DNA from: Candidatus Nomurabacteria bacterium RIFCSPLOWO2_01_FULL_42_17
GTDB taxonomy: Bacteria > Patescibacteriota > Minisyncoccia > Phycocordibacterales > UBA9973
DNA: 64,000 nucleotides
Assembly (NCBI GenBank): GCA_001785985.1
Contig: MFVE01000008.1
Coordinates: 8,751-72,750, forward strand
Reading direction: 5' to 3'
Both the position numbers and the translations under genes were made by a program. The notes beneath the pieces are model-generated. The model saw only the letters and a list, made by a program, of their open reading frames with translations, did not search any database and had not been told where the DNA came from. Shown here piece after piece: positions 19,377 to 57,964 of the stretch (position 1 is the stretch's first letter; each line of letters begins with the position of its first letter).

Positions 19377-20084
19377 TTAATCATCATTAAAGTGAAAGTC
19401 GATTTCTTCTAAATTATCACGTCTATCTTTAAAAGATTTCTTCCCCCTACTCTCTCGCACTATATCAATTATTTCTTTTCCGTGTCGGTAAAAATTTTCA
19501 TAACCGCCAAACCATTCAAGAAATTTATTTCCTTCTTTGGGATTTATAATAAAAAAATTACCTTTTTCATATTCTTCTTCACTACTACGCACTAATTTTA
19601 ATTTATTTTTTGAAATATTATGCACTTTATAATTCCACATTACATAAGCAAAAATCATTTCAAAATAATTTTCCTTTTCAGCATAATTTGATTTAAATTT
19701 CCCTTGAAGCAACGCTCCGCTTCGCCGATTTTTGTCATTAAAATATCTTGTGTATCCTCCTTGTAATCTTTTCATAAATTCACTGATACCGCCATCAATT
19801 TCCTGTTTTAAAATAAAATGAAAATGATTCGGATTAAGACAATATTCAACAATAGAAACCAATCTTTCTTTATTTTTAGGAATTTGGAGACGTCGGACGT
19901 CTACAAATGATTCTTGTTCGCGAAGTGCTAGTTCTAAACTTCCCACAGGATCTTTATAGGAAAATAATTTCATAGATAATAAAAATCTTGCAGCATCTTT
20001 TTCATCCATGAAAATAGAGCGCTTATCAACGCCTCTATTGTAAATGTGGAAATAAGAACCAGAAATAAAGGGATGTTTTCTCAT
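19377..20084 (-). CDS. IS200/IS605-like HUH (Y1) tyrosine transposase of the REP-associated (RAYT/COG1943) type
   Basis: 235 aa. YHIYNRG first-strand block, HUH motif NHFHFIL, and a C-terminal LLQGKFKS...Y..AYVMWN helix region matching the LWQ.R(F/Y)..H...YIH.NP catalytic-Tyr region of RAYTs. Paralogous to 54271-55026. Confidence 0.7.
   Translation of the reverse strand: MRKHPFISGSYFHIYNRGVDKRSIFMDEKDAARFLLSMKLFSYKDPVGSLELALREQESFVDVRRLQIPKNKERLVSIVEYCLNPNHFHFILKQEIDGGISEFMKRLQGGYTRYFNDKNRRSGALLQGKFKSNYAEKENYFEMIFAYVMWNYKVHNISKNKLKLVRSSEEEYEKGNFFIINPKEGNKFLEWFGGYENFYRHGKEIIDIVRESRGKKSFKDRRDNLEEIDFHFNDD
19888..19908. repeat. REP1 palindrome copy (GAGACGTCGGACGTCTACA) embedded in-frame in RAYT1, encoding VDVRRL
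   Basis: Near-perfect copy, read directly. It lies about 200 bp from the gene's 5' end in the loop between the YHxYNRG block and the HUH motif. Confidence 0.8.
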
Positions 20085-43858: not shown

Positions 43859-44437
43859 TTATACCTTAAAAATTTTCTTGCGATATATACAAAATACGAT
43901 AGCTATATTTATTAATATATTATATATACCAAAAGAATAGATAGTGAAGATCCAGTTTTTGATAATAAATAAGCCCAAGATGTTACCAAATATACCCGTT
44001 ATGTAGGTTACAGAGTTTTCTGTTTCTGGAAATTTCCATGACTTTATGAGCGTGGGTATTGCTGCTAGGCCATCGCTTAGGATTGCAAATACTATTGATA
44101 TGCCTAGATTGTGAGTTACTACATAGAGTATCAAGGACAGAAGAGCGAGTAACCCACAAATTATATCTAAAGTATTTAACTTCCAATAAGCATTTTTTTT
44201 AAAGAGAAAAAGAACGATGACAAGAAGAGGTCCAAAGCCAGCCATAAATACAGGCAACACAGAAAGACCTGCTCCAGCTTTTAGCTGTAGAAATACCGCA
44301 ATAAAAGGAGCCAACATCCAAAGAAACCAAGAAACTAAATTGGGTCGCGTATTCCCGTAAATAATACTCTTGAGATACCAAAATATACCTACAAGGCTTA
44401 CGAAAACTCCAATATAAATGATTTTTTCGGGAAGCAT
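43859..44437 (-). CDS. Hypothetical integral membrane protein (about 6 TM)
   Basis: 192 aa, hydrophobic, with no recognisable family. Confidence 0.45.
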   Translation of the reverse strand: MLPEKIIYIGVFVSLVGIFWYLKSIIYGNTRPNLVSWFLWMLAPFIAVFLQLKAGAGLSVLPVFMAGFGPLLVIVLFLFKKNAYWKLNTLDIICGLLALLSLILYVVTHNLGISIVFAILSDGLAAIPTLIKSWKFPETENSVTYITGIFGNILGLFIIKNWIFTIYSFGIYNILINIAIVFCIYRKKIFKV

Positions 44438-44440
44438 ATA

Positions 44441-45517
44441 TTATATGCCCTCTTTTTTTAGCTCTTCTATGAGTTTGCGAGATTCGCGAGAAAGTTTTCC
44501 GGGAAGTTTGATGTTGAGTTTGATCAAGAGATCTCCGCGTTTGTTTTTCCCGATGGGCACGCCCTTTCCTCGCACGCGCAGAATTTCATTTACAGATACG
44601 CCCTCCGGAATTGTAACTTTGATCTCACCATCTAGAGTTTGGATTGGATATTCTGTACCCAATAGCGCTTCAGAAAGCTTTAAATTCAAATTCATCGATA
44701 AATCATTGCCATCACGTTTGAAGACCGGGTGAGAAGCCACATTTATTTTTATATAAAGATCGCCAGTAGTACCCTTCGAAACGGCTTCGCCAAAACCCGT
44801 CATTCGAATCATTTCCCCATCTCGTATGCCAGCTGGAATAACAATGGAAACTTCTTCCTCACGACGGAGCACCCCTTTGCCTTTGCATGTCTCACAAATC
44901 TCTTTTGGCACTTCACCTGTACCTAAACAAACTTCACAGATTTTTGTACTCGCGATATTTCCAAAAATTGTTCTTTTTGATTCACGAATATGCCCTTGGC
45001 CATTGCAAGTCTTGCAAGTTTCCATCTTTGTTCCCGCTTTCGCTCCAGAGCCATGACAAGTAAGACAATTGGAAGTTTTGGTAATCAAAATTTTTCGATT
45101 AGTGCCGAAAATAGAATCAGAAAAAGAAATTTGAACTTCGGTCGAAATATCCCGCCCACGTCTCGCTTCCCTTCTACCTCCGCCGCCGCCAAAGAAATCA
45201 CTGAAAATGTCGTTCAAATTTCCAAAATCAAAATCCGCCCCTCCACCCCGCTCGAAACCAGAAAAATCGAAGCCTTCAAACCCAGACTGCGAGCCGCCAA
45301 AGCCTTGAGCGTCGGCGCTGCCGTATTGGTCGTATTTTGAACGCTTAGCATCATCAGAAAGCACTTGATATGCCTCATTCACTTGCTTGAATTTTGCCTC
45401 ATTCCCCTCTTTTTTATCAGGATGATATTTATGCGCGAGCTTGTAGAAGGCCTTTTTTATTTCGTCCTTGGATGCGCCCTTATTTACTCCCAATGTTTCG
45501 TAATAGTCTTTTGCCAT
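44441..45517 (-). CDS. dnaJ: Chaperone DnaJ
   Basis: 358 aa. J-domain with HPD, a G/F region, and four CxxCxGxG zinc-finger repeats. Confidence 0.92.
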
Positions 45518-45524
45518 AAATTAT

Positions 45525-46994
45525 TTATATCATAGGCTCGGCTTCTTGTGAAGTTTTTTCTTTTTCGCCTTTCTCTTTTTCTTTTCTTTTCGCTCTGCCT
45601 TCGATGATCGCTTTTTCTTCAGCGCTACGAATGATCGTGGCCTCTTCTTCCGCGATCAGTTTGGCCGCATCGTCTTTTGGTATTGAATACTTTCGGCGCG
45701 AAGCATCAATAATTTCTTTCCTGAAAGATTTATGAGTCGCCGGCAAAACCCGGAGAGTTTCCGCTGAAAAAGGATCATATGATTCACCGTCGATCGTCAT
45801 TTTCACATAGATTTCGCCAACGGCGAGATTGATCATGTCTTTTACATCGAAAAGAGGCGCAAACTCTGGCTTTAATTTGACCGCATCTTCTCCACCGACG
45901 CGAAAAGTTATAACATTTCCCACATTTCCGAGCACTGCTTGATGCACCTTGGGCAAGATCTGGCCTACATACTGGTGCGCGATGGTCAGGTTTAGCCCGT
46001 ACTTGCGAGCTTCGGATAAAATATTTTCGAAAGTTTGAGTAACGACATTTTGAAACTCATCTACGTATAGATAAAAGTCTAGGCGATCTTTTTCCGGAAT
46101 AGCCGCGCGCTCCATTCCCGCCTGCTTTATTTTAGTCAAAAATATCGAACCGAGAAAAGAAGAATTTTCTTCGCCCAGACGGCCCTTGGAAAGATTGATG
46201 AAAATTATTTTCTGTTCATTCATCAATTTGCTGATATCTATCTTATTTTGTTTCTGGCCGAAAATGTTGCGTAAAAGCGGATCCGAGAGGAATTGCCCGA
46301 GCTTGTTTACTAGTGGAATGATAGCATCAGTATCAAACTTCTCGGACCAATCGGCAAATTCGATAGCGAAGAATCTTTTGACCATGTCATCCGTGATGTA
46401 TTCCACCACCTTCTGTCTGTAATTTCGGTCAGTCAGCATCGAGATCATCCCGCGCATCGTCGCGTGCGGATAATCGAGAAGCGCGAGACAAGTAAAACGG
46501 AAGACGTGCTCCAAGCGCGGCGTCCAATTTGCCCCGAATTGTTTCTGAAACACTTCGATGAGTCCCTGCGTCAGCTGAAACTTGAACATCGGGTCCACAT
46601 TCGCGAGCGGATTAAAAGATGCCGGGAAATCAATATCAGCTGGATCAATAATACACACGTCCTCCATTCTCTCTTTCGGCACATAGTCCAGCATTGCATC
46701 GATGACATCTCCATGCGGATCAATCAGGCAGAGACCATGCCCATAGGTCACATCTTGCCGAAGCATCAGTTCGAGCAGTTTCGTTTTGCCCACGCCGGAC
46801 TTGCCAATAATATAAAGATGGCGGCGGCGGTCCACCCGCTTGATGCCAAAGATAAATTTCTTTTCCTCTAAAGCGGCCACATAATTCGTCCGCCCAATGA
46901 AAGAAACATCTTCAGGTTTGACCTTGCCGAAGACCGGCAACTCTGGCGGCGGCGGTCCGTATTTGATTATTTGCACTCGATTCGGCTTTGGCAT
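45525..46994 (-). CDS. Soluble HerA/FtsK-superfamily P-loop ATPase (DUF87 / T4CP-VirD4-like 'type IV secretion DNA-binding domain' type), copy A
   Basis: 489 aa. Walker A IIGKSGVGKT followed by LIDPHGD, Walker B LYVDEFQN, and an AHQ motif. No TM segment. Paralogue of 49502-51610. Confidence 0.7.
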   Translation of the reverse strand: MPKPNRVQIIKYGPPPPELPVFGKVKPEDVSFIGRTNYVAALEEKKFIFGIKRVDRRRHLYIIGKSGVGKTKLLELMLRQDVTYGHGLCLIDPHGDVIDAMLDYVPKERMEDVCIIDPADIDFPASFNPLANVDPMFKFQLTQGLIEVFQKQFGANWTPRLEHVFRFTCLALLDYPHATMRGMISMLTDRNYRQKVVEYITDDMVKRFFAIEFADWSEKFDTDAIIPLVNKLGQFLSDPLLRNIFGQKQNKIDISKLMNEQKIIFINLSKGRLGEENSSFLGSIFLTKIKQAGMERAAIPEKDRLDFYLYVDEFQNVVTQTFENILSEARKYGLNLTIAHQYVGQILPKVHQAVLGNVGNVITFRVGGEDAVKLKPEFAPLFDVKDMINLAVGEIYVKMTIDGESYDPFSAETLRVLPATHKSFRKEIIDASRRKYSIPKDDAAKLIAEEEATIIRSAEEKAIIEGRAKRKEKEKGEKEKTSQEAEPMI

Positions 46995-47093
46995 AATTTA
47001 TTATTGTATCATATTCCCCTCTTGAGGGGTGGCTTTAGCCGGGGTGGAAAATCCATCCACCTCCCCCTAAAGGGTACTCCTCAAGAGGAGAAC

Positions 47094-48755
47094 TTAGTAC
47101 ACTTCTTGCTGATAACATTTCTCACAATAGACTATTTCTGGACGCTCGGGAGCATAATTTGTAGTTATTTCTTTTTTACATTTCACGCAATTACGATCCC
47201 AGAATTTATATGGACCGCGATGCGTAATGCGGTCTCGGTGGCGACAATAAAAACATTTTCGCGGTATCGGAAGGTTCATTTTTCGATAAAATAAAAGCTC
47301 TTGATTGATGATTTTATAATTACGATTGCAATCTATACACTTTAAAATTTCATCCGTGATAGAGTCTGACACATCTTTTATATGATCTGGAATATCCTCT
47401 GGTTTCATCGTTTCCTTCCCTTCTGTTTTTTGGATATCATCTTCCCATCTAAAACCAGTCTTTAGCACTTCCTCTTTTGTCATAGGCATATTGTCTTGCG
47501 CAATACTTTCGTTATAAGCAAAAGGTGCAAGCTCAGGTGGAATCATTAGCCCATATAAATCTTTTTGTTTTAATTCTTCAATTATTTTCGCTCGCAGTCT
47601 CTCATATTCTTCTTTTGAATACTGTTTATTTAAAATTGAATATTCGCCATGATGTAACGCGTCGCAACCGATGCAATTTTTACAATTTCTGACATAAAAT
47701 CCATATAAAATATCTGTAGAATTCTCTGCGCCATATGTGCCAATCACATTACTACATAGACCGGTGGCAACCACTTCAAGCATTCGTTCTGATTTAGTGC
47801 CATAGCCGATAGTGTCCATAGAATCCTTGACTCCTTTTGAGGAAAATATATATCTAGAATCTTCTGCATTGGTAGCTTCAAAAGAATCTTTAACATTTTT
47901 GCACTCAAATAAATAATCTCCAGTGGAATTGACTGTCTTAATATTATTATTTTCGCGCATTGGAAAATCTAGAATGAATTTTTGAAATTCTTTTTTGAAT
48001 TCTTCTATCTTTTCATAACTGCCCATGATTTCACCCACTTTTTTCTTATACTCTTCTGGCTGCATTGGGTGATTAAAAAAATAATACGATTTATTATTTA
48101 AATTCACACAACCGAAACAATTCATCAATCCTCGGCAATTTAAAACAAAAGCAGAATCCACTGAACCGGTGATATTTTGGCCAAAAAGTATGCCCGCAGA
48201 CTCTTGAACATTTATAGATTCATAACATCTTTCAAAACTGGTGCCAAAATACATATCAGATGAATCATTACCATGCCTGACTCCCCTTGAATAAAGTAAT
48301 TCTTCGGCCGGACTAGTATTAAAAACTAAATAGCAATTTCTACAGCCAGTAGACATATTTGTGTATTCACTATTCACGTTTGCTCCGGAACCCAGAGAAA
48401 TATATGTAGTAATTTTTGGCACTTTTTTGAGAAGCTCGCCGAACTGCTCTAAAAAAGATTTATTTTCATCATAGTCCATCGCGTAATTTTTCGGCTCCCA
48501 TTTTTCGGAGTAAAAACAATCGTAGCAATAAATAGTGTAGGGAGATTTTGGATTATACATAGAGATAATACCCTTCCCGCAAAGTCCGCACTGACGTCCA
48601 GAATAAAGAGTCGTCTCATTTCGAAACATCGCGCGCATTTTAAAACGGCACGGAGGGCAGACTTTTGGTGATGGCACCTTCATCTTTTCATAAAATCCAA
48701 GATCGTCCAAATCTAGAATAAAATCTTGCCTGCATTTTTTACAATTTTGCTGCAT
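47094..48755 (-). CDS. Cys-rich protein with duplicated FYxK-x2-(V/L)P-x-P-x2-C-x2-CR zinc-ribbon modules at both ends (copy A, partly degenerate Cys repeats)
   Basis: 553 aa. N-terminus CKKCRQDF...FYEKMKVPSPKVCPPCR. C-terminus FYRKMNLPIPRKCFYCR...CVKCKKEITT...IVYCEKCYQQEVY. Two internal YSILNKQYSKEEYE-type blocks. Paralogue of 55602-57308. Confidence 0.6.
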   Translation of the reverse strand: MQQNCKKCRQDFILDLDDLGFYEKMKVPSPKVCPPCRFKMRAMFRNETTLYSGRQCGLCGKGIISMYNPKSPYTIYCYDCFYSEKWEPKNYAMDYDENKSFLEQFGELLKKVPKITTYISLGSGANVNSEYTNMSTGCRNCYLVFNTSPAEELLYSRGVRHGNDSSDMYFGTSFERCYESINVQESAGILFGQNITGSVDSAFVLNCRGLMNCFGCVNLNNKSYYFFNHPMQPEEYKKKVGEIMGSYEKIEEFKKEFQKFILDFPMRENNNIKTVNSTGDYLFECKNVKDSFEATNAEDSRYIFSSKGVKDSMDTIGYGTKSERMLEVVATGLCSNVIGTYGAENSTDILYGFYVRNCKNCIGCDALHHGEYSILNKQYSKEEYERLRAKIIEELKQKDLYGLMIPPELAPFAYNESIAQDNMPMTKEEVLKTGFRWEDDIQKTEGKETMKPEDIPDHIKDVSDSITDEILKCIDCNRNYKIINQELLFYRKMNLPIPRKCFYCRHRDRITHRGPYKFWDRNCVKCKKEITTNYAPERPEIVYCEKCYQQEVY

Positions 48756-48765
48756 AGTTTTATAT

Positions 48766-49068
48766 TTATGCGCTAATATACTGATACTGATTCATAAATT
48801 TATAAGAAAAAGGTTCTGCGTATTTTTCCAAAATACGTCGCTCAAAAGCATCCAACTTATCGTAGCCAAGAATAAAATTTTTAATTACGCTCCATTCTTC
48901 GCGTCCGGCCGGTTTAATATCTTTAAAAGATAAAATGTTATTAACTATGCCCAGCGCGCGATTTTTTGCATTCTCCGCGGCCTGCACTTTATGTGAATCA
49001 AAAAAAGAAAAAAGTCTGCCTATTTCAGGATATAAGTTCGCCATATAAAAAAGAGAGTTCTTTTCCAT
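48766..49068 (-). CDS. Hypothetical protein
   Basis: 100 aa. Its ATG is supplied by the 83-bp palindromic element. Confidence 0.4.
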   Translation of the reverse strand: MEKNSLFYMANLYPEIGRLFSFFDSHKVQAAENAKNRALGIVNNILSFKDIKPAGREEWSVIKNFILGYDKLDAFERRILEKYAEPFSYKFMNQYQYISA

Positions 49069-49143
49069 CCCAGTACTAAAATTTTAAATTGTTATTAATA
49101 TTGACCATTTGTTTTACTCAAAAATTTAGTACGGGACAGGTAA
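49063..49143 (-). repeat. 83-bp imperfect-palindrome intercistronic element, copy Y (reverse complement of copy X). Supplies the ATG of the 48766-49068 gene.
   Basis: Arms CCATCCCAGTACTAAAATTTT and AAAAATTTAGTACGGGACAGG are identical to the reverse complement of the copy X arms over 21 nt each. Confidence 0.6.
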
Positions 49144-49144
49144 A

Positions 49145-49495
49145 TTATTTTAGATCAATAAACTTATAAATAATCTCTGTGGCTTTTTTTGTCGTTTCTT
49201 CATTATTTATTCCACGCGAGCGATTACCAGAGTTTGGTTTAATATTAACCATAGAATCAAATTCTAAAACTCCATCAGGATTTTCCTCAAAACGAATATT
49301 AAAACCCCACACATCTTCAAATTTTGAACCAGAAGCCGTCAGCATTTCTGAAGATTCAATATGATAATCCCCTCCCAAAGCAACTCGTCCAAGCTCGACA
49401 TCAACAGTGCCCTTAATCATCGTGCCATACCAAAAATCAGCCATTTTTTTTACTTCTTCCATGCTTATTTTATTATCTAAAATTTGTATCTTCAT
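49145..49495 (-). CDS. Hypothetical protein
   Basis: 116 aa with no confident family. Confidence 0.4.
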   Translation of the reverse strand: MKIQILDNKISMEEVKKMADFWYGTMIKGTVDVELGRVALGGDYHIESSEMLTASGSKFEDVWGFNIRFEENPDGVLEFDSMVNIKPNSGNRSRGINNEETTKKATEIIYKFIDLK

Positions 49496-49501
49496 TTAAG
49501 T

Positions 49502-51610
49502 TTATTCTAAAATCTTCCGCAAGACATCTTCTGGAACTTCTTTTACTTTTTCAGCCTTAGGTTGACCAGCCTCGGGCTGGGGTTTTTGAGGTATAGAAAT
49601 GGGTAGAGGAGATGGCGCAGTTTTTGATGAAATTAAATCCTTCAATTTATTCATATCCTCCGAGCTCGCGGCGCGATCAGAGCCTGTGTGGATAGGCTTG
49701 GCAGAGACAGATTCTTTTATTTTTTCTTTTAGGGCATCAAGTGAAACAGGTGCTGGAACGGGTTCTTTTATCACTGATTTCTGTGGGGCAGCTCCGTCAC
49801 TAGTGATTTTATTTAGCACTTCTCGTAACGCTAAATTTTCCTCACCGGTGCGGGCAGGTTTCGGCTTTGGAGCTATGAAAACTTTTTTAATAGCCCCGAG
49901 AATCCCAGGTTTGGGATTGATATTAGAATGAATCGTATTTGAATGCGTACCTGCTCTAAAAGGAGGCTTAACCCATTTTTTATCTAGATGATGATCCTCC
50001 CTCTCTGGATATCTTTCTTTTTCTTCATCAATATTTTTTTCCTTTTTCTCGAATTCTATACCCAAATCGGCTAGTGGTTTGAAAAAAGTGACCTCATCAT
50101 GCTTGATCTGATTTTCGGAGCCTTTTTCTACCTTTACTTCGCCAGATTTTATTTTAGCGATGCAATCTTTGCAATAAACAGCTCGGCCCGGATCGGGTTT
50201 GAAGGGCACGGTCGTTTCTTTTTTGCAGAGCGAACAAATAGCTGGAAATTTTTCTAGATTTCCGCTTCCAGTGTCGGACTCGTTGCCGAGGGACATTCCG
50301 CTCCAATTATTGATCTCTCTCTCCACCACTTCTTTGCTCTTGCAGTAAAGGGCGCGCGAAGAACGGATCACTTCTTCTTCGATCTTTTTATCGCCGGACT
50401 TCACTAGAGGTGGCAAAGTTTTGGCGGAAAAGGGACGAGAAGTAACCCCGTCGATCATCAGCTTTAGATAAATTTTATAATTCGGCAAGTTTACTATGTC
50501 TTGCGGGGTGAATTCCGGGTCAAATTCGGGCTCTAAAAATTCTGCATCGTCCGCCCCAACCCGGAAAACTATCGTCGTACCAACGTTGCCGAAAACGGCG
50601 TCTCGCACAGCTGAACTTTTATCTACTACGAGCTGAGCAGTATATTGATGGGCTACGGTGAGGTTGAGTCTGTATTTTCTAGCTTCCGAAAGAATTCCGG
50701 CGAATGCGTCCGTCACGAAATTTTGAAATTCATCCACAAAAAGATAAAAATCTTTTCTACTTTCTTCGGGAATACGCACCCGTTCCATCGCCGCTAGCTG
50801 AATCTTGGTAATGATCATACCGCCCAGAAGCCCGGAATTGTCTTCACCAATGCGCCCTTTGGAAACGTTTACTAAAAAGATCTTGCCTTCGTTCATCATG
50901 TCAAAAATATTTATCGTGCTTTTGGATTGACCGACGACATTTCGAATGATGCTGGTGGAGAGAAATTGCCCGACTTTATTTTGAATCGGCGCGATTGCTT
51001 CGTTTCGAAATTTATCCTGCCAGGCCTCGTATTCGTGTATCCAGAAAGCCTTGATGACCGGATCTTTTAAATTAGAAATTATTTTTTGGCGGTAATCTTT
51101 GTCCACCAACATTCTGGGGATACCGAGGAGAGTCGTACCCGGAGTGTCGAGTAAGGCCAAAATCGCATTGTTTAAAATATATTCCATTCGAGCGCTCCAA
51201 GCATTCGCCCAAATTTTAGTAAAAATTCCCATCAGACCCGAAGCCACCAAATGTTTGTATTGCGGATCAATCAATTCTAAAACATTAAAGCCGATATGAT
51301 GATCTGCGTCGGCTGGATTGAAATAGACGACGTCTTTGACGCGCTCGGGTGGAATGGCCGACAGGACTGCTTCGACATTTTCTCCATGAGGGTCAACCAT
51401 GCAGACCCCATCTCCATTTTTGATATTCTGAATAATCATGTTGAACATCAAAGCCGATTTACCTGTGCCGGACTTTCCAAGAATATAAACATGCTGACGC
51501 CTGTCTTTGCGCTTGATGCCAAAAAGCTGATTCCTGTCGCGATAAGTGCTGACTCCGAGATAGGTAATCTCCTTATTCTGAGGTATTTGGGGTATTTCTG
51601 GCAGATCCAT
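49502..51610 (-). CDS. Soluble HerA/FtsK-superfamily P-loop ATPase, copy B, with a C-terminal zinc ribbon and a Pro/Lys-rich tail
   Basis: 702 aa. Walker A ILGKSGTGKS then MVDPHGEN, Walker B LFVDEFQN, AHQ motif. The C-terminal ribbon CSLCKKETT...VYCKDCIAK matches the C-terminal ribbon of the Cys-rich proteins. Confidence 0.7.
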   Translation of the reverse strand: MDLPEIPQIPQNKEITYLGVSTYRDRNQLFGIKRKDRRQHVYILGKSGTGKSALMFNMIIQNIKNGDGVCMVDPHGENVEAVLSAIPPERVKDVVYFNPADADHHIGFNVLELIDPQYKHLVASGLMGIFTKIWANAWSARMEYILNNAILALLDTPGTTLLGIPRMLVDKDYRQKIISNLKDPVIKAFWIHEYEAWQDKFRNEAIAPIQNKVGQFLSTSIIRNVVGQSKSTINIFDMMNEGKIFLVNVSKGRIGEDNSGLLGGMIITKIQLAAMERVRIPEESRKDFYLFVDEFQNFVTDAFAGILSEARKYRLNLTVAHQYTAQLVVDKSSAVRDAVFGNVGTTIVFRVGADDAEFLEPEFDPEFTPQDIVNLPNYKIYLKLMIDGVTSRPFSAKTLPPLVKSGDKKIEEEVIRSSRALYCKSKEVVEREINNWSGMSLGNESDTGSGNLEKFPAICSLCKKETTVPFKPDPGRAVYCKDCIAKIKSGEVKVEKGSENQIKHDEVTFFKPLADLGIEFEKKEKNIDEEKERYPEREDHHLDKKWVKPPFRAGTHSNTIHSNINPKPGILGAIKKVFIAPKPKPARTGEENLALREVLNKITSDGAAPQKSVIKEPVPAPVSLDALKEKIKESVSAKPIHTGSDRAASSEDMNKLKDLISSKTAPSPLPISIPQKPQPEAGQPKAEKVKEVPEDVLRKILE

Positions 51611-51721
51611 ATAATGCTATTTTACAATAAAATGGCTCTTTGCGCTAATTTAACTTGACTTTTGTCTAACTTTAGAATACACTGGGAGTGTAAATGCTTT
51701 CCTTGTCGAAAGCTCCGAGAA

Positions 51722-51764
51722 ACCCCCGAAAGGGGGTTTCGTATTTTATAAAATACTCCCGCCC
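51722..51764 (-). terminator. Terminator-like hairpins just downstream of the dnaK stop (GCCCC-CGGA-GGGGC with a U-rich tail on the minus strand, and AAACCCCC-GAAA-GGGGGTTT)
   Basis: Both stems were read directly. Confidence 0.4.
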
Positions 51765-51788
51765 CCGGAGGGGCTTTTAGGAAAAATT

Positions 51789-53699
51789 TTATTTCTTCGG
51801 CGCCTCGCCTTCAGGCTTCTCTCCTTCTTTGAATTCCGCATCTTTTACTTCCGCTGGTTGCTCTTCTGGAGCTCCGGCTGGAGGAGTAGTCGTACCACCA
51901 GCCTTTTGTATTGCTTCCCCTATTTTGGACATTTCAGCCGAAAGTTCTTCGGTCGCTTTTTTGATTGCCTCTCCATCCGTGCCATCTTTAGTAGTTTTGA
52001 GCGCGGTAATTTTCATATTGACGCTGTCTTTTAATTCCGCCGGAATTTTAGCTTCGTTATCTTTCAACGCCTTTTCAGCGGTATAAATAATCATCTCTGC
52101 GGTATTTTTCACATCCACCACATCTTTTTTCTTTTTATCTTCCTCAGCGTGCATTTCCGCGTCTTTCTGCATTTTTTTAATTTCCTCATCTTTGAGTCCA
52201 GAGCTTGCTTCTATTTTGATCGATTGAGTCTTGCCAGAAGCTTTGTCTTTCGCCGTGACATTCAAGATTCCATTCGCATCCACATCGAAGGAAACCTCGA
52301 TCTGCGGCATACCGCGAGGCGCTGGTGGAACTCCGTCTAAAATAAATCTTCCTAAAGATCGGTTGTCAGACGCCATCGGACGTTCTCCTTGAACTATATG
52401 GATCTCTACGCTAGTCTGATTGTCAGCAGCCGTAGAAAAGACTTGAGACTTGCTGGACGGAATGGTCGTATTCCTCTCGATTAATTTGGTCGCCACTCCT
52501 CCGAGCGTTTCGATGCCGAGAGAAAGAGGAATGACATCGAGCAAGAGAACATCGCGCACATCTCCGGCGAGTACGCCGGCCTGCACCGCCGCGCCGAGCG
52601 CCACCACTTCGTCCGGATTGATAGACATATTCGGCTCTTTGCCGAAAAGATTTTTCACTGCCTGCACAATCGCCGGCATTCTGGTTTGTCCGCCCACCAT
52701 GATGATTTCATTTATTTCTTCCATTTTGAAAGGTGAAGCCGCTAGTGCCCTCTTGGTGATCTCAATCGAACGATCAATCAGATCTTTCGTGAGAGATTCA
52801 AGTGTGGCACGAGACATCTTCATCAATAAATGCTTCGGTCCTCCAGCATCCGAAGTGATGAAAGGAATATTTATTTCTGATTCAATGGTTGTAGAGAGTT
52901 CATGCTTTGCTTTTTCCGCAGCCTCACGAAGTCTCTGATGAGCAAGCGGATCTTTAGTTACATCAATGCCAGATTCTTTTTTATATTCTTCCGCAATCCA
53001 CTTCACTATCTTTCGATCAATATCGCCTCCGCCCATGTGACTGTCGCCATCTATAGATTTAACCTCAATAACATCACTGCCTATCTCGAGCACGGACACG
53101 TCAAAAGTTCCTCCACCAAAATCATAAACCACAATCTTTTCATTTTTCTTTTTATCAAATCCATAAGCGAGCGCGGCAGCCGTCGGCTCGTTTATAATTC
53201 TTTTTACATCTAATCCCGCGATCGCTCCGGCATCCTTGGTCGCTTTTCTTTGCGCATCATTAAAATACGCCGGCACGGTGATAACCGCTTCGGTTATTTT
53301 CTCTCCGAGCTTTGCTTCCACATCTGTCTTTATTTTTTGCAAAATCATCGCAGAAATTTCTTCCGGTCGGTAAAATTTATCTGTCATTTTAACTTTCACT
53401 CCGCCGCCATCGCCTGCTTCTATTTTAAACGGCGCGGTTCCGCGGTCTTTTTGCACTTCCGGATCGTCAAAACGATGCCCCATCAGACGCTTAATTTCCG
53501 CAATTGTATTTTCTGGATTTGTAATTGCTTGCCTTCTAGCTAAAAGCCCGACAATCCGATCGCCATTTTTTGCAGTCGCCACCACCGAAGGCGTCGTGCG
53601 ATTACCTTCAATATTTTCAATAATCTTCGGCGCGCCTCCTTCGATGACAGCGACCGCTGAATTTGTTGTACCCAAATCTATACCTATTATTTTTGCCAT
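51789..53699 (-). CDS. dnaK: Chaperone DnaK (Hsp70)
   Basis: The likely start is [14 protein letters not shown] at 53699; the ORF-track N-terminal extension is spurious. Full-length Hsp70 signatures. Confidence 0.93.
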
Positions 53700-53876
53700 A
53701 TGTTTTATTTTATTAACTAATAAATTTATTAATTTTAAAAAATCAACGCTCCCAAAACGAAACCAACTATAAACCAAAAGATAATGAGCCTAGTTCCTGT
53801 TTTTTCTAATAATCTTTTTTGTTCTGCTAACGTATCATTTACATTTTTTTCGTACATATATTTTATATAAAATTAA

Positions 53877-54167
53877 TTAATAATTATTTAAATTTAATTT
53901 AACTACGAACCAACTAACAATAATGCTAATAATTATCGGTATTAATAAATTCCATATTGTTTTTGGTAACCAAGATTCTCTTTTATCGATTAAAAAATTT
54001 CTTTTATGCTCTAAAATTTCTAATCTATGAACTAATGGTTTTTTTGCTTGGTCAAATTGCCCATCAAGGATTGATTGAGGTATGGGTTTACGCAATTTGT
54101 TGGGCAAATCAAAAATCTCCTCCTTTATTTCTAATATTTCTTTTTCAATTTTATAGAACTTACTCAT
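53877..54167 (-). CDS. Hypothetical small C-terminally anchored protein
   Basis: 96 aa with a single C-terminal TM helix. Confidence 0.35.
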   Translation of the reverse strand: MSKFYKIEKEILEIKEEIFDLPNKLRKPIPQSILDGQFDQAKKPLVHRLEILEHKRNFLIDKRESWLPKTIWNLLIPIIISIIVSWFVVKLNLNNY

Positions 54168-54270
54168 ACGCGATAATTATATACCCATCTTTAATTTTTA
54201 GCAAGTTTTTCGTGACCACGAAATACTTGTCAAAAGTTAGTACATAGTATAAGATATAACATGTCAACTT

Positions 54271-54291
54271 GTGGAGGACGGTCCTTCACAG
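54271..54291. repeat. REP2 copy (GTGGAGGACGGTCCTTCACAG), 5' flank of RAYT2
   Basis: One mismatch from a perfect palindrome. Confidence 0.75.
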
Positions 54292-55026
54292 TATGATATA
54301 AATATGCAACGACCTCATACATTTTCTATCGACGAGTACTATCATTTATATAATCGCGGAACTGACAAGAGATCTATTTTTCTAGATGTTAATGATTATC
54401 ATCGATTTATTATGCTTCTCTATCTTTGTAATACAATCGAGCCATTTGATATGCAAAAGATTTTCCGCACTAACGGTGAAGGACCGTCCTTCACAGAAAT
54501 ATTTAAACTTCATCGAGGTCAGCCCATTATTTCCATAGGCACCTGGGTACTCATGCCAAATCATTTTCATCTATTGGTAAAAGAAATAGCTGAAGGAGGA
54601 ATCACGACATTCATGCGAAAAGTGAATACTGGATATTCAATGTATTTTAATAAAAAATATGGGAGAACGGGAAATCTATTTCAGGGAAAATTTAAATCAG
54701 AACATGCCGATAATGATAATTATCTTAAGTATCTTTTTTCATATATCCATCTTAATCCAATAAAATTAATCAGAGGCGAGGATAACTGGAAAGAAGTTGG
54801 AATTACAAATCTAAATAATGCAAAAGATTTTTTATCTAAATATGAATACTCAAGTCTGCCTAGTTATCTAACTATAAAGACTAATTTTAACAAAATTATT
54901 CAGAAAGATTTATTCCCTGAATATTTTCCTGATCCAAATAATATATGGGATGATATGACAGAATGGCTTACTTCTAAAAAAGAACCCGAAGAAAAAATTA
55001 TGAAGGACGGTCCTTCACAGAAATAA
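54271..55026 (+). CDS. IS200/IS605-like HUH (Y1) tyrosine transposase of the REP-associated (RAYT/COG1943) type, paralogue 2
   Basis: 251 aa. The start may be the internal Met at 54304. YHLYNRGTDKRSIF block, HUH motif NHFHLLV, and LFQGKFKSEH...YLFSYIHLNPIKL matching the RAYT catalytic-Tyr helix. Peptides GEGPSF and KDGPSQK are encoded by REP2 copies. Confidence 0.75.
   Translation: MEDGPSQYDINMQRPHTFSIDEYYHLYNRGTDKRSIFLDVNDYHRFIMLLYLCNTIEPFDMQKIFRTNGEGPSFTEIFKLHRGQPIISIGTWVLMPNHFHLLVKEIAEGGITTFMRKVNTGYSMYFNKKYGRTGNLFQGKFKSEHADNDNYLKYLFSYIHLNPIKLIRGEDNWKEVGITNLNNAKDFLSKYEYSSLPSYLTIKTNFNKIIQKDLFPEYFPDPNNIWDDMTEWLTSKKEPEEKIMKDGPSQK
54475..54498. repeat. REP2 copy (GGTGAAGGACCGTCCTTCACAGAAAT) embedded in-frame in RAYT2, encoding GEGPSFTE
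   Basis: Perfect 8-bp arms. Same loop position as the REP1 copy in paralogue 1. Confidence 0.8.
55002..55025. repeat. REP2 copy (TGAAGGACGGTCCTTCACAGAAAT) overlapping the RAYT2 stop
   Basis: Perfect palindrome. Confidence 0.8.
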
Positions 55027-55030
55027 AAAA

Positions 55031-55558
55031 ATGAAAAACAAAAAACAGAATTACAAAGAAAAAATATTAAATTTATTGTCGGAAAGAACTGCAGTCTCTT
55101 TTACTGAGATTAATAGATTCGTGAAGGACGGTCCTTCACAGAAATACGCTGTAACCCGTTCAATAAAGGGCTTGAAGGAGGCTGGACTAATAGAACAAAT
55201 AGCATCTCCGCAAAACGAATACGCTCGTTTGACAAAAGAGGGGCAAAAAAAAGTACATATTTTAAAATTAGATAGTGATACGACACTGGTGAATACCACT
55301 TGGGATGGATTTTGGAGAATTATTTTGATAGATCTGCCAGAAGACAGAAAAAGTGAACGCGAAAGTCTACGTTACCTTCTAAAAAAAGCCGGCTTCGTCT
55401 GCTTGAAGAATTCTGCTTGGATCTCCCCTTTCCCCTTTGAACATTTGTTCACGAATATAAAAAAAGACTTGGGACTAAGAGAAGAAATGATGATCATTGT
55501 CACCGAATTTGTGGACGAAGAGACAAAAAAATTTCTATTTGAAACTTTCGGGAAATAA
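55031..55558 (+). CDS. PaaX-family-like transcriptional regulator (N-terminal winged HTH and a C-terminal PaaX_C/Cas2-like domain)
   Basis: 175 aa. wHTH ILNLLSERTAVSFTEIN...VTRSIKGLKEAGLIE. C-terminal WDGFWRIILIDLPEDRKSERESLRYLLKKAGFVCLKNSAWISPFP matches the PaaX C-terminal pattern W.G.W....D.PE...R..LR..L...GF..L..S.W.SP. Carries an in-frame REP2 copy (VKDGPSQK). Confidence 0.55.
   Translation: MKNKKQNYKEKILNLLSERTAVSFTEINRFVKDGPSQKYAVTRSIKGLKEAGLIEQIASPQNEYARLTKEGQKKVHILKLDSDTTLVNTTWDGFWRIILIDLPEDRKSERESLRYLLKKAGFVCLKNSAWISPFPFEHLFTNIKKDLGLREEMMIIVTEFVDEETKKFLFETFGK
55122..55146. repeat. REP2 copy (GTGAAGGACGGTCCTTCACAGAAAT) in-frame within the PaaX-like gene
   Basis: Perfect palindrome. 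Confidence 0.8.
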
Positions 55559-55601
55559 ACTAATTTACTATTATTATGCTATAGCATTATTATAGTAAAT
55601 T

Positions 55602-57308
55602 TTAATAAACCTCTTGCTGATAGCATTTTTCACAATAAATTATTGGGGAATATTTTTCATCATAAACTGTTTCGACTTCGGTCTCGCATTTTGAACATTG
55701 ACGTTTAATGGTGCAAAGCGGCGGACGTTTTTGCAAACGACGAGTATGTCTGACATCAAAACAAACTCGCGGAAGTGGCAAATCCATTCTGCGATAAAAA
55801 GAAAGTTCGTTAGAAGTAATACGAAAAGCTCCCGTAGAATACGGCTGATCTTTTTCGGCGCACTCAATAATTTCATTCAAAATAGAATCATCGACTTCTG
55901 CTATTGTTTCCGGTAAATCAGAACTTTTGATGGTGGTCGTATAATTTTTCTTTTCTTTCTCTTTCCAGCTGTATCCCCTTTTCAGCGCTTCCGTCTTAGA
56001 AAGTGGATAAAAATCTATCGCCGCAGTTTCATTATAGGCAAACGAAGACAAATCGGCAGGGAAAAACTCTCCATATCCATAGGATTTTCCTGTTTTATCT
56101 ACATATGGCATATCCTGCATATGCTTGATGATTTTTGGCAACAATACCTCATATTCTTCCTTCGTATATTTTTTATTTAAAATAGAATACTCGCCCTTCT
56201 TCAAACCTATGCATCCAAAGCAGTATCTAGAACTTGGACAAGAATCACAGTAGTATAGATCATGGGCGCCAGTCCAACATTGTGAACAGAAAAAAATTCT
56301 TGAATCGTTTATGCCACAATTTGCTGATTCATAAATAAGTTCAGAAGAATCGCCCCACTGGAAATGATCCATGCAGTCCTGTTCGTTGAATGCGAAATAA
56401 ATATATTTGCAATCCTTTAAATTCATACAGCCGAAAGAATTTTTAACATTTTCACAATTAAGAAACCAATTACCCGAAACTTTATTTGATTTTAAAGACA
56501 TAATTGCTCTCTCTGGAAACTTCTTCCTAAATTCATTAAATTTAACATCCATCATGACAATACCTGAATCAGTATTCAATTCAAACTCTTTGAGTTTTTC
56601 AAAATATTCTTCTTTGGTGTATTGCTTATTGAAAATACAAAATTGTTTATTAACCAAATTAACACAGCCAATGCAGTCAGAGCAATTTCGACAAGCGTAT
56701 AAAAATATAGAATCACGACACTCAGCGCATTCTTGAGAAAATCTGGTTTTATAACATTTATTGCAATCTATACATTCGTAGCATAGCTCGCAATGGTTCA
56801 CGTTAAAACAATCTACACAATTTTTCACATTTCGAGCCGTATAAGTATATAGCGAATCTTCACAATCCGAAGCTCGGAAAACCATATAACAATTCTTTAA
56901 ATCGTGCACTCTATGTGTGTATTCACTATTGATAGAAAAACCCTGGCGGACAAGTGCCATGCGCGGAACTTTATTAAATAATTCTTGAAATTGTGAAAAA
57001 AATGGCCGAGAAAAATCGTATTCTTGGCCATATTGATACGGATCCCATTCATCAGAGTAAAATTCTTTGGTTTCGTAGACCGGAAAAGGCGCTTCGGGTG
57101 GATACATACTAAAAATATCTTGCCCGCTCAAGTCAGACTTTCTTTTGTAAAATACTCGCTCATTGGCACCCACCATGCGTCGCACTGACCGGCACTCTGG
57201 ACAAAAAGTTGGTGGCGGGACTTTTATTTTTTCATAAAAAGAAAAATCATCCAGTTCGATGGTGAAATCTTTTTTACAATTTTGACAATTTTTTGTTTCG
57301 TTTTGCAT
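55602..57308 (-). CDS. Cys-rich protein with duplicated FYxK-x2-(V/L)P-x-P-x2-C-x2-CR zinc-ribbon modules at both ends and a central period-8 Cys-repeat region (copy B)
   Basis: 568 aa. N-terminus CQNCKKDF...FYEKIKVPPPTFCPECR. C-terminus FYRRMDLPLPRVCFDVR...CSKCETEVET...IIYCEKCYQQEVY. Central NCVDCFNVNHCELCYECIDCNKCY... and two YSILNK(K/Q)YTKEEYE blocks. Confidence 0.6.
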   Translation of the reverse strand: MQNETKNCQNCKKDFTIELDDFSFYEKIKVPPPTFCPECRSVRRMVGANERVFYKRKSDLSGQDIFSMYPPEAPFPVYETKEFYSDEWDPYQYGQEYDFSRPFFSQFQELFNKVPRMALVRQGFSINSEYTHRVHDLKNCYMVFRASDCEDSLYTYTARNVKNCVDCFNVNHCELCYECIDCNKCYKTRFSQECAECRDSIFLYACRNCSDCIGCVNLVNKQFCIFNKQYTKEEYFEKLKEFELNTDSGIVMMDVKFNEFRKKFPERAIMSLKSNKVSGNWFLNCENVKNSFGCMNLKDCKYIYFAFNEQDCMDHFQWGDSSELIYESANCGINDSRIFFCSQCWTGAHDLYYCDSCPSSRYCFGCIGLKKGEYSILNKKYTKEEYEVLLPKIIKHMQDMPYVDKTGKSYGYGEFFPADLSSFAYNETAAIDFYPLSKTEALKRGYSWKEKEKKNYTTTIKSSDLPETIAEVDDSILNEIIECAEKDQPYSTGAFRITSNELSFYRRMDLPLPRVCFDVRHTRRLQKRPPLCTIKRQCSKCETEVETVYDEKYSPIIYCEKCYQQEVY

Positions 57309-57340
57309 TCTATAATTCTATAGAATATTAGAATAGATTT

Positions 57341-57964
57341 TTATTCTCTATACTCATACACATTCACTCGCGCTGGGCGCATCACTCTATCGCCCAACTT
57401 GTAGCCTTTTTGAATTACACTTGAAACTGCATGATCGAGTTCCTTTTTATCGGTTGCCATCAATTCCATGGACTGATGAATGTTAGGATCAAACTTTTCC
57501 CCTACTTCGCCTATAGGTTTCACTCCATATTCTTCAAAAACTGTATTCATCTGTCCGTAGATATATTCCACACCGCGTCTCCAATTCTCATCCACTTTCT
57601 CCCATGCCTCACGGTTAGCGAAAGCCATATTGAAACTATCCACCACCGATAGAAAACGGGTCAAAATCCGCTCGCGCATTGATTCGGAAAACATCGCTTT
57701 GCGATCATCCTCGCCTTTTTTGTAATTGGCAAATTCCGCCCGCTCCTTCTGCCAGCCAGTAAGATATTCTTCCTTCTCCTTTTTGCACGCTTTCAAATCT
57801 TCCCTAAATTTCTTTAGAGTCTTTTTTAAATCTTCTTCCCCATCTTCATTGAATTCAAATTCCAAAACTTCAGAATCAGTTTCTGGAACTATATTTTCAG
57901 GATCTTTTTTAATTTCCCCGCCTGCATCGTTATGCGAAGCATTGCGGGCAGGTTCATCAGACAT
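57341..57964 (-). CDS. grpE: Nucleotide exchange factor GrpE
   Basis: 207 aa with the GrpE coiled-coil and beta-domain (DPNIHQSM, GYKLGDRVMRPARV). The N-terminal tail carries 40-bp element copy B, encoding EPARNASHNDAGG. Confidence 0.9.
   Translation of the reverse strand: MSDEPARNASHNDAGGEIKKDPENIVPETDSEVLEFEFNEDGEEDLKKTLKKFREDLKACKKEKEEYLTGWQKERAEFANYKKGEDDRKAMFSESMRERILTRFLSVVDSFNMAFANREAWEKVDENWRRGVEYIYGQMNTVFEEYGVKPIGEVGEKFDPNIHQSMELMATDKKELDHAVSSVIQKGYKLGDRVMRPARVNVYEYRE
57916..57953 (-). repeat. Copy B of the ~40-bp GC-rich hairpin element, sense-oriented in the grpE 5' end
   Basis: Plus strand CCCCGCCTGCATCGTTATGCGAAGCATTGCGGGCAGG. Inner GCGAAGC mini-hairpin. Confidence 0.65.

Follow-up and report, generated by a model that had tools for sequence, protein, structure and literature searches.

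Patescibacteria account for much of the diversity of bacteria, and most of their conserved genes are without an assigned function. The stretch of DNA discussed here, referred to as the window, comprises 64,000 nucleotides (nt) of contig MFVE01000008.1 from Candidatus Nomurabacteria bacterium RIFCSPLOWO2_01_FULL_42_17 (GCA_001785985.1). It contains two genes for related ATPases (ATPase A and ATPase B) and two genes for related cysteine (Cys)-rich proteins (Cys-rich A and Cys-rich B), interspersed with the chaperone genes grpE, dnaK, and dnaJ. On the minus strand, the order is grpE, Cys-rich B, a small unconserved open reading frame (ORF), dnaK, ATPase B, a DUF5674 gene, an ORF of 100 amino acids (aa), Cys-rich A, ATPase A, and dnaJ; a RAYT-like and a PaaX-like gene occupy the plus strand between Cys-rich B and dnaK (Table 1). 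An earlier note, made from the DNA alone, had drawn up the same coordinates, strands, and gene order, and matches to Pfam support its assignments of HSP70, DnaJ, GrpE, Y1_Tnp, and PaaX_M. Both Cys-rich proteins are entered in the databases as hypothetical proteins of the source organism. Comparison with related genomes identifies the region as a conserved chromosomal housekeeping-type module of the class Paceibacteria (Patescibacteria).

Since the two ATPases have diverged to 45% identity across 430 aa (E 9e-135) and the two Cys-rich proteins to 38% identity over their full length (E 2e-128), both duplications are old. Judged by these alignments, chance likeness within either pair is excluded. 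Both ATPases carry the motifs GKSG[VT]GK[ST], [IV]DPHG[DE], [YF]VDEFQN, and AHQ, and Walker A and Walker B are intact. These motifs, on which the earlier note had relied, can be read directly in both copies; two of them, the Walker A and Walker B patterns, were counted across 174 ATPase homologues and found in most of these.

Profile searches place the ATPases close to the coupling proteins of type IV secretion systems (T4SSs). The Pfam cut-offs are exceeded for TrwB_AAD_bind (29.9 bits for A and 41.3 bits for B; cut-off 20.5), T4SS-DNA_transf (23.8 and 30.0 bits; cut-off 20.1), TraG-D_C (22.7 and 26.4 bits; cut-off 22), and DUF87, the HerA central domain (26.5 and 35.3 bits; cut-off 23.2). 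The sole NCBIfam model that spans the whole core is CD1115, which aligns with residues 54-370 of ATPase A and gives 48 bits relative to a cut-off of 250. By their scores, the ATPases are to be regarded as distant relatives, and not as members, of the NCBIfam coupling-protein families. No transmembrane segment was found in either protein (maximum 19-residue Kyte-Doolittle hydropathy 0.91 in A and 1.13 in B).

The nearest solved structure by sequence is TrwB (E 0.002). An AlphaFold2 (AF2) model of ATPase A has its best Foldseek matches to TrwB (E 7e-10), HerA-NurA (E 8e-10), DotL, and Cagbeta (E values to 2e-9). In this model, a helical block at about residues 129-260 lies between strands 113-116 and 263-267, i.e., at the position of the all-alpha domain (predicted local distance difference test, pLDDT, 64). 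Only two strands, in a low-confidence region (residues 30-52), precede the P-loop, and no clear HAS-barrel can be seen. The assignment of both proteins to the FtsK/HerA superfamily as soluble, coupling-protein-like ATPases, proposed in the earlier note, thus agrees with Pfam, NCBIfam, Foldseek, and hydropathy.

Outside the core, the two ATPases differ. ATPase B has a zinc ribbon that scores above the cut-offs of zf_Tbcl_2 (PF23477; 46 bits, cut-off 27) and TIGR04272 (48.6 bits, cut-off 36), followed by a basic tail (isoelectric point, pI, 9.05). The CxxC-x17-CxxC pattern of this ribbon is present in 65 of 66 long-form ATPases, and the C-terminus of the short forms is nearly always EP(M/L)I. 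In nearly all orthologues of ATPase A, this tetrapeptide forms the very carboxyl end (window 45525-45545). At the other end, the N-terminal stretch of about 25 residues (RVQIIKYGPPPPELPVFGK, 46920-46994) is nearly invariant, yet it is predicted to be disordered. Both stretches look like docking peptides for partner proteins.

A full-length relative is found on a plasmid of Embleya, which encodes a coupling protein of 812 aa. Over its residues 386-785, this protein is 33% identical to ATPase B (aligned part 389-781) and 30% identical to ATPase A, and its approximately 385 additional N-terminal residues include a hydrophobic segment near aa 36 (hydropathy 1.82). The surrounding gene cluster is annotated with a PrgI family protein, an ATP-binding protein, a replication-relaxation family protein, and NlpC/P60. 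The window ATPases therefore equate to the cytosolic half of a coupling protein of the monoderm type, without its N-terminal half. The description that fits them best is that of a domesticated offshoot of monoderm coupling proteins from which the membrane domain is missing. Three canonical coupling-protein features are lacking, viz., the membrane domain, a context of secretion or relaxase genes, and scores above the NCBIfam cut-offs. With respect to gene context, VirB4-like genes gave no match in the window or in any of 162 loci, and T4SS or relaxase genes were not found within 10 kb.

Two ATPase homologues stand in a different setting. Plasmid NZ_CP081110.1 of the alphaproteobacterium Sulfitobacter mediterraneus carries, beside transposases, an orphan homologue of 395 aa (99994-101181) with 37.5% identity to ATPase A. 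Since this homologue is nearer to ATPase A than is the Embleya protein, transfer from or to Patescibacteria is possible. The other, an ATPase of 456 aa with 48% identity to the core of ATPase B, is encoded at 4896-6266 of IMGVR_UViG_3300029327_000042, a contig classed as viral, and no Cys-rich, dnaK, or dnaJ gene was found near it.

To place the module in a wider context, 80 species-level genome loci with orthologues of ATPase A were analysed by tblastn and ORF clustering; 36 of these are flanked by at least 8 kb on either side (the fully flanked subset). The median identity to the window protein is 87.6% for ATPase A (80 species), 83.3% for DnaK, 74.7% for DnaJ, and 69% for ATPase B. Moreover, ATPase A is more conserved than DnaK in 22 of the 24 loci that have both. 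Among the fully flanked loci, ATPase B lies within 10 kb of ATPase A in 34, a Cys-rich gene is present in 32, and dnaK or dnaJ is present in 26. ATPase A (about 490 aa) and ATPase B (about 700 aa) are, as judged from their separate sets of orthologues and their own conserved tails, two ancient paralogues. The neighbours of the module are core genes (cysS, dnaB, recR, and ribosomal proteins), and synteny is stable across the 80 species.

The module occurs in three arrangements. The first, in the clade of the window, reads grpE, (Cys-rich), PaaX-like gene on the opposite strand, dnaK, ATPase B, zero to four Cys-rich genes, ATPase A, dnaJ, and a membrane protein gene. The second (loci L061-L083) has an Nramp gene on the opposite strand, ATPase A, CutA1, a cytidylyltransferase-like gene, and Cys-rich genes, continuing with a membrane protein gene on the opposite strand, ATPase B, and a lamin-tail-domain protein gene. 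The third, seen in metagenomes, consists of ATPase B, Cys-rich genes, CutA1, ATPase A, and further Cys-rich genes. In arrangements 2 and 3, dnaK, dnaJ, and grpE were not found within 10 kb. Consequently, the view that the locus is embedded in a grpE-dnaK-dnaJ operon holds for the window and its clade and not for the other two arrangements. Nor is the locus a duplicated two-gene module as the earlier note had proposed: two ancient ATPase paralogues bracket from none to four Cys-rich genes that are drawn from at least 10 subfamilies. Genes for CutA1 (tolerance of divalent ions), an Nramp metal transporter, a small cytidylyltransferase-like protein, and a lamin-tail-domain protein flank the module where dnaK is missing (L061-L083; L091, L094, L127, and L137). 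These neighbours could hint at a metal connection of the Cys-rich family.

The Cys-rich proteins belong to a large, Paceibacteria-specific family of cytoplasmic proteins (about 570 aa) with at least 5,026 representatives at 50% identity (E <=1e-3), nearly all of which are 550-600 aa long, and all named members are from Patescibacteria. Each protein has 24-45 Cys residues, and at least 10 subfamilies can be distinguished at 52% identity. Orthologues of Cys-rich A are 65-84% identical. The proteins, whose family the earlier note had not recognised, fall in no described family: Pfam, NCBIfam, and PADLOC gave only sub-threshold zinc-ribbon matches, a search of the PDB sequences with the family profile gave nothing up to E 1, and Foldseek with a Cys-rich protein gave no significant match. 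No transmembrane segment was detected (maximum 19-residue Kyte-Doolittle hydropathy about 1.1), and a literature search on the family found nothing. Hence, the Cys-rich family, with several thousand clusters and a new architecture, is a new and undescribed one. A phage or mobile origin of the Cys-rich protein was considered and rejected, as 50,697 phage records and IMG/VR contained no match to the family. One family member, P0446 (731 aa), bears a GNAT fusion, which provided no clue to function.

In their architecture, two beta-solenoid units form a rigid core, with a double zinc ribbon at either end. Profile-profile comparison indicates that the N-terminal and C-terminal double ribbons are homologous (probability 99.1%, E 4e-19) and that the same applies to solenoid units 1 and 2 (probability 99.5%, E 1e-22). 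Conservation of Cys was computed over 283 family members. The last ribbon (ZR4; C538, C541, C559, and C562) is 100% Cys and the first ribbon (C8, C11, C36, and C39) about 99%, followed by the third ribbon (84-99%), the CxxCxxCxxC run at 206-215 (80-96%), and the second ribbon (42-71%). Cys-rich A has kept the second ribbon (C56, C59, C77, and C80), which is lost in B together with part of the third.

The terminal Cys-rich motifs quoted in the earlier note are present, and so is the dense Cys lattice of copy B, most of which is lost in copy A (38 vs 27 Cys). Where the lattice has Cys in B but lacks it in A, only about 30-50% of the 283 members have Cys at the column in question. Of the two internal YSILNK blocks that had been described, the first "YSILNK..KEEY" block is degenerate (FCIFNKQYTKEEY in B and YYFFNHPMQPEEY in A). 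The second ribbon of each pair in the Cys-rich proteins appears, by profile comparison, to be of the same type as the ATPase B ribbon: hhalign gives a probability of 90% for ZR4 and 91% for ZR2, and residues 521-551 of Cys-rich A reach 15.8 bits with the zf_Tbcl_2-type model (cut-off 27).

The genomic linkage between the ATPase and the Cys-rich genes was also approached from the Cys-rich side, using 79 metagenome loci centred on a Cys-rich gene, 38 of them at least 10 kb long. An ATPase gene is present in 18 of these 38 and dnaK, dnaJ, or grpE in 7; we estimate that, for a genome of about 0.6-1 Mb, roughly 2-3% of stretches of this length would include one given locus by chance. ATPases constitute the only recurrent neighbour family of the Cys-rich arrays (18 loci, compared with 6 for the next families), and the genes lie on the same strand and are closely spaced, with median gaps of 20 nt from ATPase to Cys-rich gene and 29 nt between Cys-rich genes. 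The loci are related by descent, and therefore the strongest argument for linkage is its persistence through three arrangements and not the raw counts. Among these arrangements, the flanking genes have changed. Thus, the pairing noticed in the window is kept in other genomes, the Cys-rich protein falls in no known family, and the duplication is neither recent nor unconserved. Away from ATPases, the Cys-rich genes can form arrays of up to seven tandem copies (L149), and in L001, an array adjoins scpAB and ftsW-murG.

Table 1. Genes and other features of the module in the window.
Feature	Position	Strand	Basis
grpE	57341-57964	-	Pfam GrpE, E 6e-37
Cys-rich B, 568 aa, 38 Cys	55602-57308	-	double zinc ribbon, two beta-solenoid units, alpha/beta linker, double zinc ribbon
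PaaX-like winged-helix regulator, divergent from dnaK	55031-55558	+	Pfam PaaX_M, E 1e-19
RAYT-like (IS200/Y1) transposase gene	54271-55026	+	Pfam Y1_Tnp; NCBIfam REP_Tyr_transpos below its cut-off
dnaK	51789-53699 (probable ATG start; ORF reaches 53777 from TTG)	-	Pfam HSP70, E 5e-245
GC-rich palindromic hairpin, dnaK-ATPase B gap	51719-51740		terminator-like scan and the sequence itself
ATPase B, 702 aa: coupling-protein-like core, zinc ribbon, basic disordered tail	49502-51610	-	Pfam TrwB_AAD_bind, DUF87, T4SS-DNA_transf, TraG-D_C
ATPase B zinc ribbon, aa 454-487	50150-50251	-	zf_Tbcl_2 and TIGR04272 above cut-offs
DUF5674 protein, 116 aa	49145-49495	-	Pfam DUF5674, E 4e-21
100-aa ORF	48766-49068	-	no family match; accompanies DUF5674
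Cys-rich A, 553 aa, 27 Cys, paralogue of B	47094-48755	-	38% identity to B, full length
ATPase A, 489 aa: coupling-protein-like core, C-terminus EP(M/L)I	45525-46994	-	Pfam TrwB_AAD_bind, DUF87, T4SS-DNA_transf
dnaJ, 7 nt downstream of ATPase A	44441-45517	-	Pfam DnaJ, DnaJ_CXXCXGXG, DnaJ_C
192-aa polytopic membrane protein, 3 nt downstream of dnaJ	43859-44437	-	no family match

The polytopic membrane protein of 192 aa encoded downstream of dnaJ is homologous (hhalign 97.8%) to the membrane protein that adjoins ATPase B in arrangement 2, and it has no family match even at E = 5. Of the ATPase-containing loci that are 10 kb or longer, 41 of 87 encode it, compared with none of 20 loci without an ATPase (Fisher p = 2e-5, uncorrected for relatedness). 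On the basis of this co-occurrence, the protein is a candidate membrane partner of the ATPases. The DUF5674 gene is an occasional member of the module: L025, L031, L059, and L136 have it between the two ATPase genes, L007 and L035 have it upstream of ATPase A, and tblastn matches to the 100-aa ORF stand beside it in L007, L031, L035, L059, and L136. A literature search on DUF5674 found nothing.

In the clade of the window, the module stands close to the chaperone genes. The adjacency of ATPase and dnaJ was seen 56 times, with a median gap of 40 nt. Among the 80 ATPase-A-centred loci, grpE lies upstream of the cluster in 10, and the PaaX-like gene is located directly upstream of dnaK on the opposite strand in 24. 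This is not the canonical contiguous hrcA-grpE-dnaK-dnaJ operon, since ten further genes are interleaved among the chaperone genes. A scan of the window for the CIRCE operator, allowing up to 3 mismatches, gave no site, and the PaaX-like regulator is a candidate for replacing HrcA in heat-shock control. This winged-helix protein has a Cas2-like middle domain (e.g., L002 1551-2069). Two GC-rich hairpins follow right after the dnaK stop codon (51719-51790), within the 178-nt gap that precedes ATPase B. From their sequence, they may act as a terminator or attenuator between dnaK and the ATPase genes. A promoter scan was uninformative (36 sites found vs 36 expected).

That Patescibacteria carry ATPases of this kind has been published. 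A survey (2025) identified 5,713 VirD4-type homologues in 2,918 of 3,035 Patescibacteria genomes (96%), approximately two per genome; only 148 of these 5,713 orphan homologues are near virB4, and their role was left open (PMC12102498). The window ATPases are very probably the orphan VirD4-type homologues of that survey. The survey makes no mention of a division into A and B, of the absence of a membrane domain, of a zinc ribbon, of a location between dnaK and dnaJ, or of Cys-rich partners, and the word "dnaK" is absent from its text (PMC12102498). A literature search for the ATPase together with dnaK found nothing. Relative to the searchable literature, the new elements are hence the paralogue structure, the Cys-rich partners, the membrane protein, and the position in the chaperone operon.

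Coupling proteins that have no membrane domain and work together with small membrane proteins form a recognised subfamily, as exemplified by TraJ and TraI of pIP501 (PMC7434980). Like pIP501 TraJ and the CD1115 type, the window ATPases consist of a nucleotide-binding and an all-alpha domain without the N-terminal membrane domain, and the membrane protein described above recalls the small membrane partners of this subfamily (TraI of pIP501). Unlike them, the window ATPases are chromosomal, lie among core genes, are extremely conserved, comprise two fixed paralogues, and have no T4SS or relaxase neighbours. TrwB of R388, DotL, and Cagbeta give the best fold matches to ATPase A, yet the identity is only about 15%. 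In these systems, the ATPases are membrane-embedded parts of a secretion apparatus, and their partners are unrelated to the Cys-rich proteins in both sequence and fold. DotL, of the Legionella coupling complex, works together with adaptor subunits, including the zinc-binding DotN and the chaperone-like IcmS/IcmW. The DotL set is the nearest analogy to a coupling protein that is accompanied by Cys-rich partners and chaperones.

With HerA, the window ATPases share the superfamily, a DUF87 match above threshold, and the general plan of a ring ATPase whose partner is encoded next to it. However, no NurA, SIR2, or DUF4297 partner is present in the window or among the recurrent neighbours, and a HAS-barrel is not clear in the AF2 model. 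Furthermore, the HerA_antiphage model gives 16 bits relative to a cut-off of 800, and the all-alpha insert of the window ATPases is typical of coupling proteins. As for the zinc ribbon, small CxxC-x17-CxxC proteins of Methanosarcina mazei bind zinc, as determined by inductively coupled plasma mass spectrometry on purified protein (PMC12704099). The domain is common to these proteins and ATPase B, and ZR2 and ZR4 of the Cys-rich proteins have the same CxxC...CxxC layout. While the M. mazei proteins stand alone, the ribbon here extends a motor ATPase and appears also to cap a beta-solenoid protein at its ends.

The observed homology, architecture, extreme conservation, and gene linkage lead us to favour, tentatively and at somewhat less than an even chance, a model in which the module is a domesticated coupling-protein motor that engages zinc-ribbon proteins as adaptors or clients. 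In this model, ATPases A and B would form ring-shaped ATP-driven motors, as TrwB and HerA do, either as one mixed ring or as two rings. The co-localised polytopic protein (about 190 aa) may anchor the rings at the membrane, and the rings would engage the Cys-rich proteins through the common ribbon modules. The Cys-rich proteins, in turn, might be interchangeable adaptors or, alternatively, clients that are unfolded and handed on. In the clade of the window, the module would be transcribed together with the genes for DnaK, DnaJ, and GrpE, and these chaperones would hold those same clients or refold them. We infer the oligomeric state, the physical contact between the partners, the direction of action, and any link to a Patescibacterial T4SS from these observations.

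A more far-reaching reading, which we consider doubtful, is that the ATPases are the domesticated coupling proteins of the Patescibacterial T4SS and that the Cys-rich family, with its roughly 5,000 clusters, is its exported cargo, kept by chaperones and recognised by the invariant terminal double ribbon. The Cys-rich proteins, which have no signal peptide, would then be delivered outside the cell or into the host by a T4SS descended from monoderm conjugation machinery. The small polytopic protein would anchor the ATPases at the membrane, and DnaK, DnaJ, and GrpE would keep the cargo competent for export. If true, the T4SS, to which the epibiotic way of life of this phylum is ascribed, would gain its first candidate family of substrates and its first connection to chaperones.

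Several observations weigh against the favoured model of a domesticated motor with zinc-ribbon partners. In the saccharibacterium Southlakia, the coupling-protein homologue is not essential for epibiotic growth, unlike other T4SS genes (PMC12102498). The NCBIfam coupling-protein families (TraD_SXT, CD1115, and TraD F-type) are not reached (53 bits vs 366 and 48 bits vs 250), and the AF2 model of ATPase A is of only moderate quality (pLDDT 64), because the alignment behind it is shallow (16 rows, mostly 88-96% identical). The sampled loci are phylogenetically related and belong to one class, such that the counts overstate independent support. Moreover, the interval between ATPase B and ATPase A is without a Cys-rich gene in 20 of 60 loci, and about half of the Cys-rich arrays stand away from any ATPase; hence, coupling between ATPase and Cys-rich protein is not obligatory in cis. 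The 192-aa membrane protein was not found in arrangement 3. Finally, the linkage to dnaK and dnaJ is confined to the clade of the window and possibly represents inherited synteny without functional meaning.

Other explanations were considered in the light of the same data. A soluble FtsK/HerA/TrwB-type translocase of DNA or RNA, serving in DNA uptake, segregation, or repair, with the Cys-rich proteins as zinc-ribbon accessories that bridge or hold the substrate by their ribbon-bearing ends, is in our opinion rather unlikely. It would be in keeping with the nearest structural relatives (TrwB, HerA-NurA, DndH, TdpAB, and CedD-like), all of which act on DNA, with the designation of the matched Pfam domain as DNA-binding, with the basic tail of ATPase B, and with the very high conservation, which is typical of motors with a universal substrate. 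Yet the Cys-rich family is neutral to slightly acidic (median pI 6.3) and the N-terminal double ribbon of B has a pI of 4.7, values that are uncommon among proteins binding nucleic acids; genes for nucleases, relaxases, recombinases, or competence do not recur in the 162 loci, and co-transcription with DnaK and DnaJ would be left without explanation. In another alternative, the ATPase rings constitute an export-free proteostasis device, i.e., an unfoldase or disaggregase acting with DnaK, DnaJ, and GrpE, in which the Cys-rich proteins are metal- or redox-sensing co-chaperones or a zinc buffer. In the clade of the window, dnaK and dnaJ enclose the module, the gap to dnaJ being 7-40 nt, every Cys-rich protein has 24-45 Cys with conserved CxxC sites, and CutA1 and Nramp genes flank the module in other lineages. 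These metal-gene neighbours are few, however, and the metal-homeostasis reading has for this reason been demoted to a part of the proteostasis explanation. In arrangements 2 and 3, dnaK, dnaJ, and grpE are missing within 10 kb, the hairpins downstream of dnaK point to transcription that is in part separate, and no coupling-protein or HerA family member is known to be a disaggregase. We consider such a device unlikely.

It might also be argued that the genes have no functional connection and are neighbours merely by shared gene-order ancestry in a small genome that rearranges slowly. All loci come from one class, and Cys-rich arrays also occur beside scpAB or ftsW-murG, with half of them not near an ATPase. 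We nevertheless regard mere synteny as decidedly unlikely: the linkage persists through three arrangements with changed flanks, the ATPase is the sole recurrent neighbour of the Cys-rich arrays, and the ribbon type of ATPase B appears to recur at the Cys-rich termini. The alternative raised in the earlier note, a HerA-type anti-phage system, or a mobile-element remnant, with the Cys-rich protein as effector, is highly improbable. Weak PADLOC matches of the ATPase to mad8 (E 1e-13) and to HerA models (E 1e-7), the RAYT-like transposase in the region, and the plasmid and few viral-contig ATPase homologues are the points in its favour. However, the PADLOC matches are to single ATPase models only, with no other defence-system gene and none for the Cys-rich or small proteins, and no defence partners were found. 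The module is near-universal in its clade and located among core genes with stable synteny across 80 species, and ATPase A is more conserved than DnaK. In addition, the Cys-rich family is absent from phage records and IMG/VR, the GC content of the region is not deviant, and the position of the RAYT-like gene varies.

Irrespective of which explanation applies, the locus offers a first handle on ATPases that are present in 96% of Patescibacteria genomes and almost never stand beside a secretion system. It adds constraint above that of DnaK, two fixed paralogues with tails of their own, a very large partner family, and, in one clade, wiring into the Hsp70 operon. The open question of what these ATPases do thereby becomes testable in terms of binding partners, translocated substrate, and T4SS involvement. 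The Cys-rich family, with its several thousand clusters, merits a domain entry.

Based on its sequence and its varying position among the loci, the RAYT-like gene is a lineage-specific insertion outside the conserved module. A second RAYT-like (Y1_Tnp) gene at window 19377-20084 on the minus strand is 37% identical to the 54271-55026 copy. Within about 860 bp of the RAYT-like and PaaX-like genes, the 15-bp palindrome GAAGGACSGTCCTTC occurs four times (54273-54287, 54478-54492, 55002-55016, and 55123-55137), where 0.12 occurrences would be expected per whole window. Each of the copies falls within the coding sequence of the RAYT-like or PaaX-like gene and is read as (D/E)GPS(Q/F). The palindrome looks like a RAYT-associated element of the repetitive extragenic palindrome (REP) type that has been absorbed into coding sequence.

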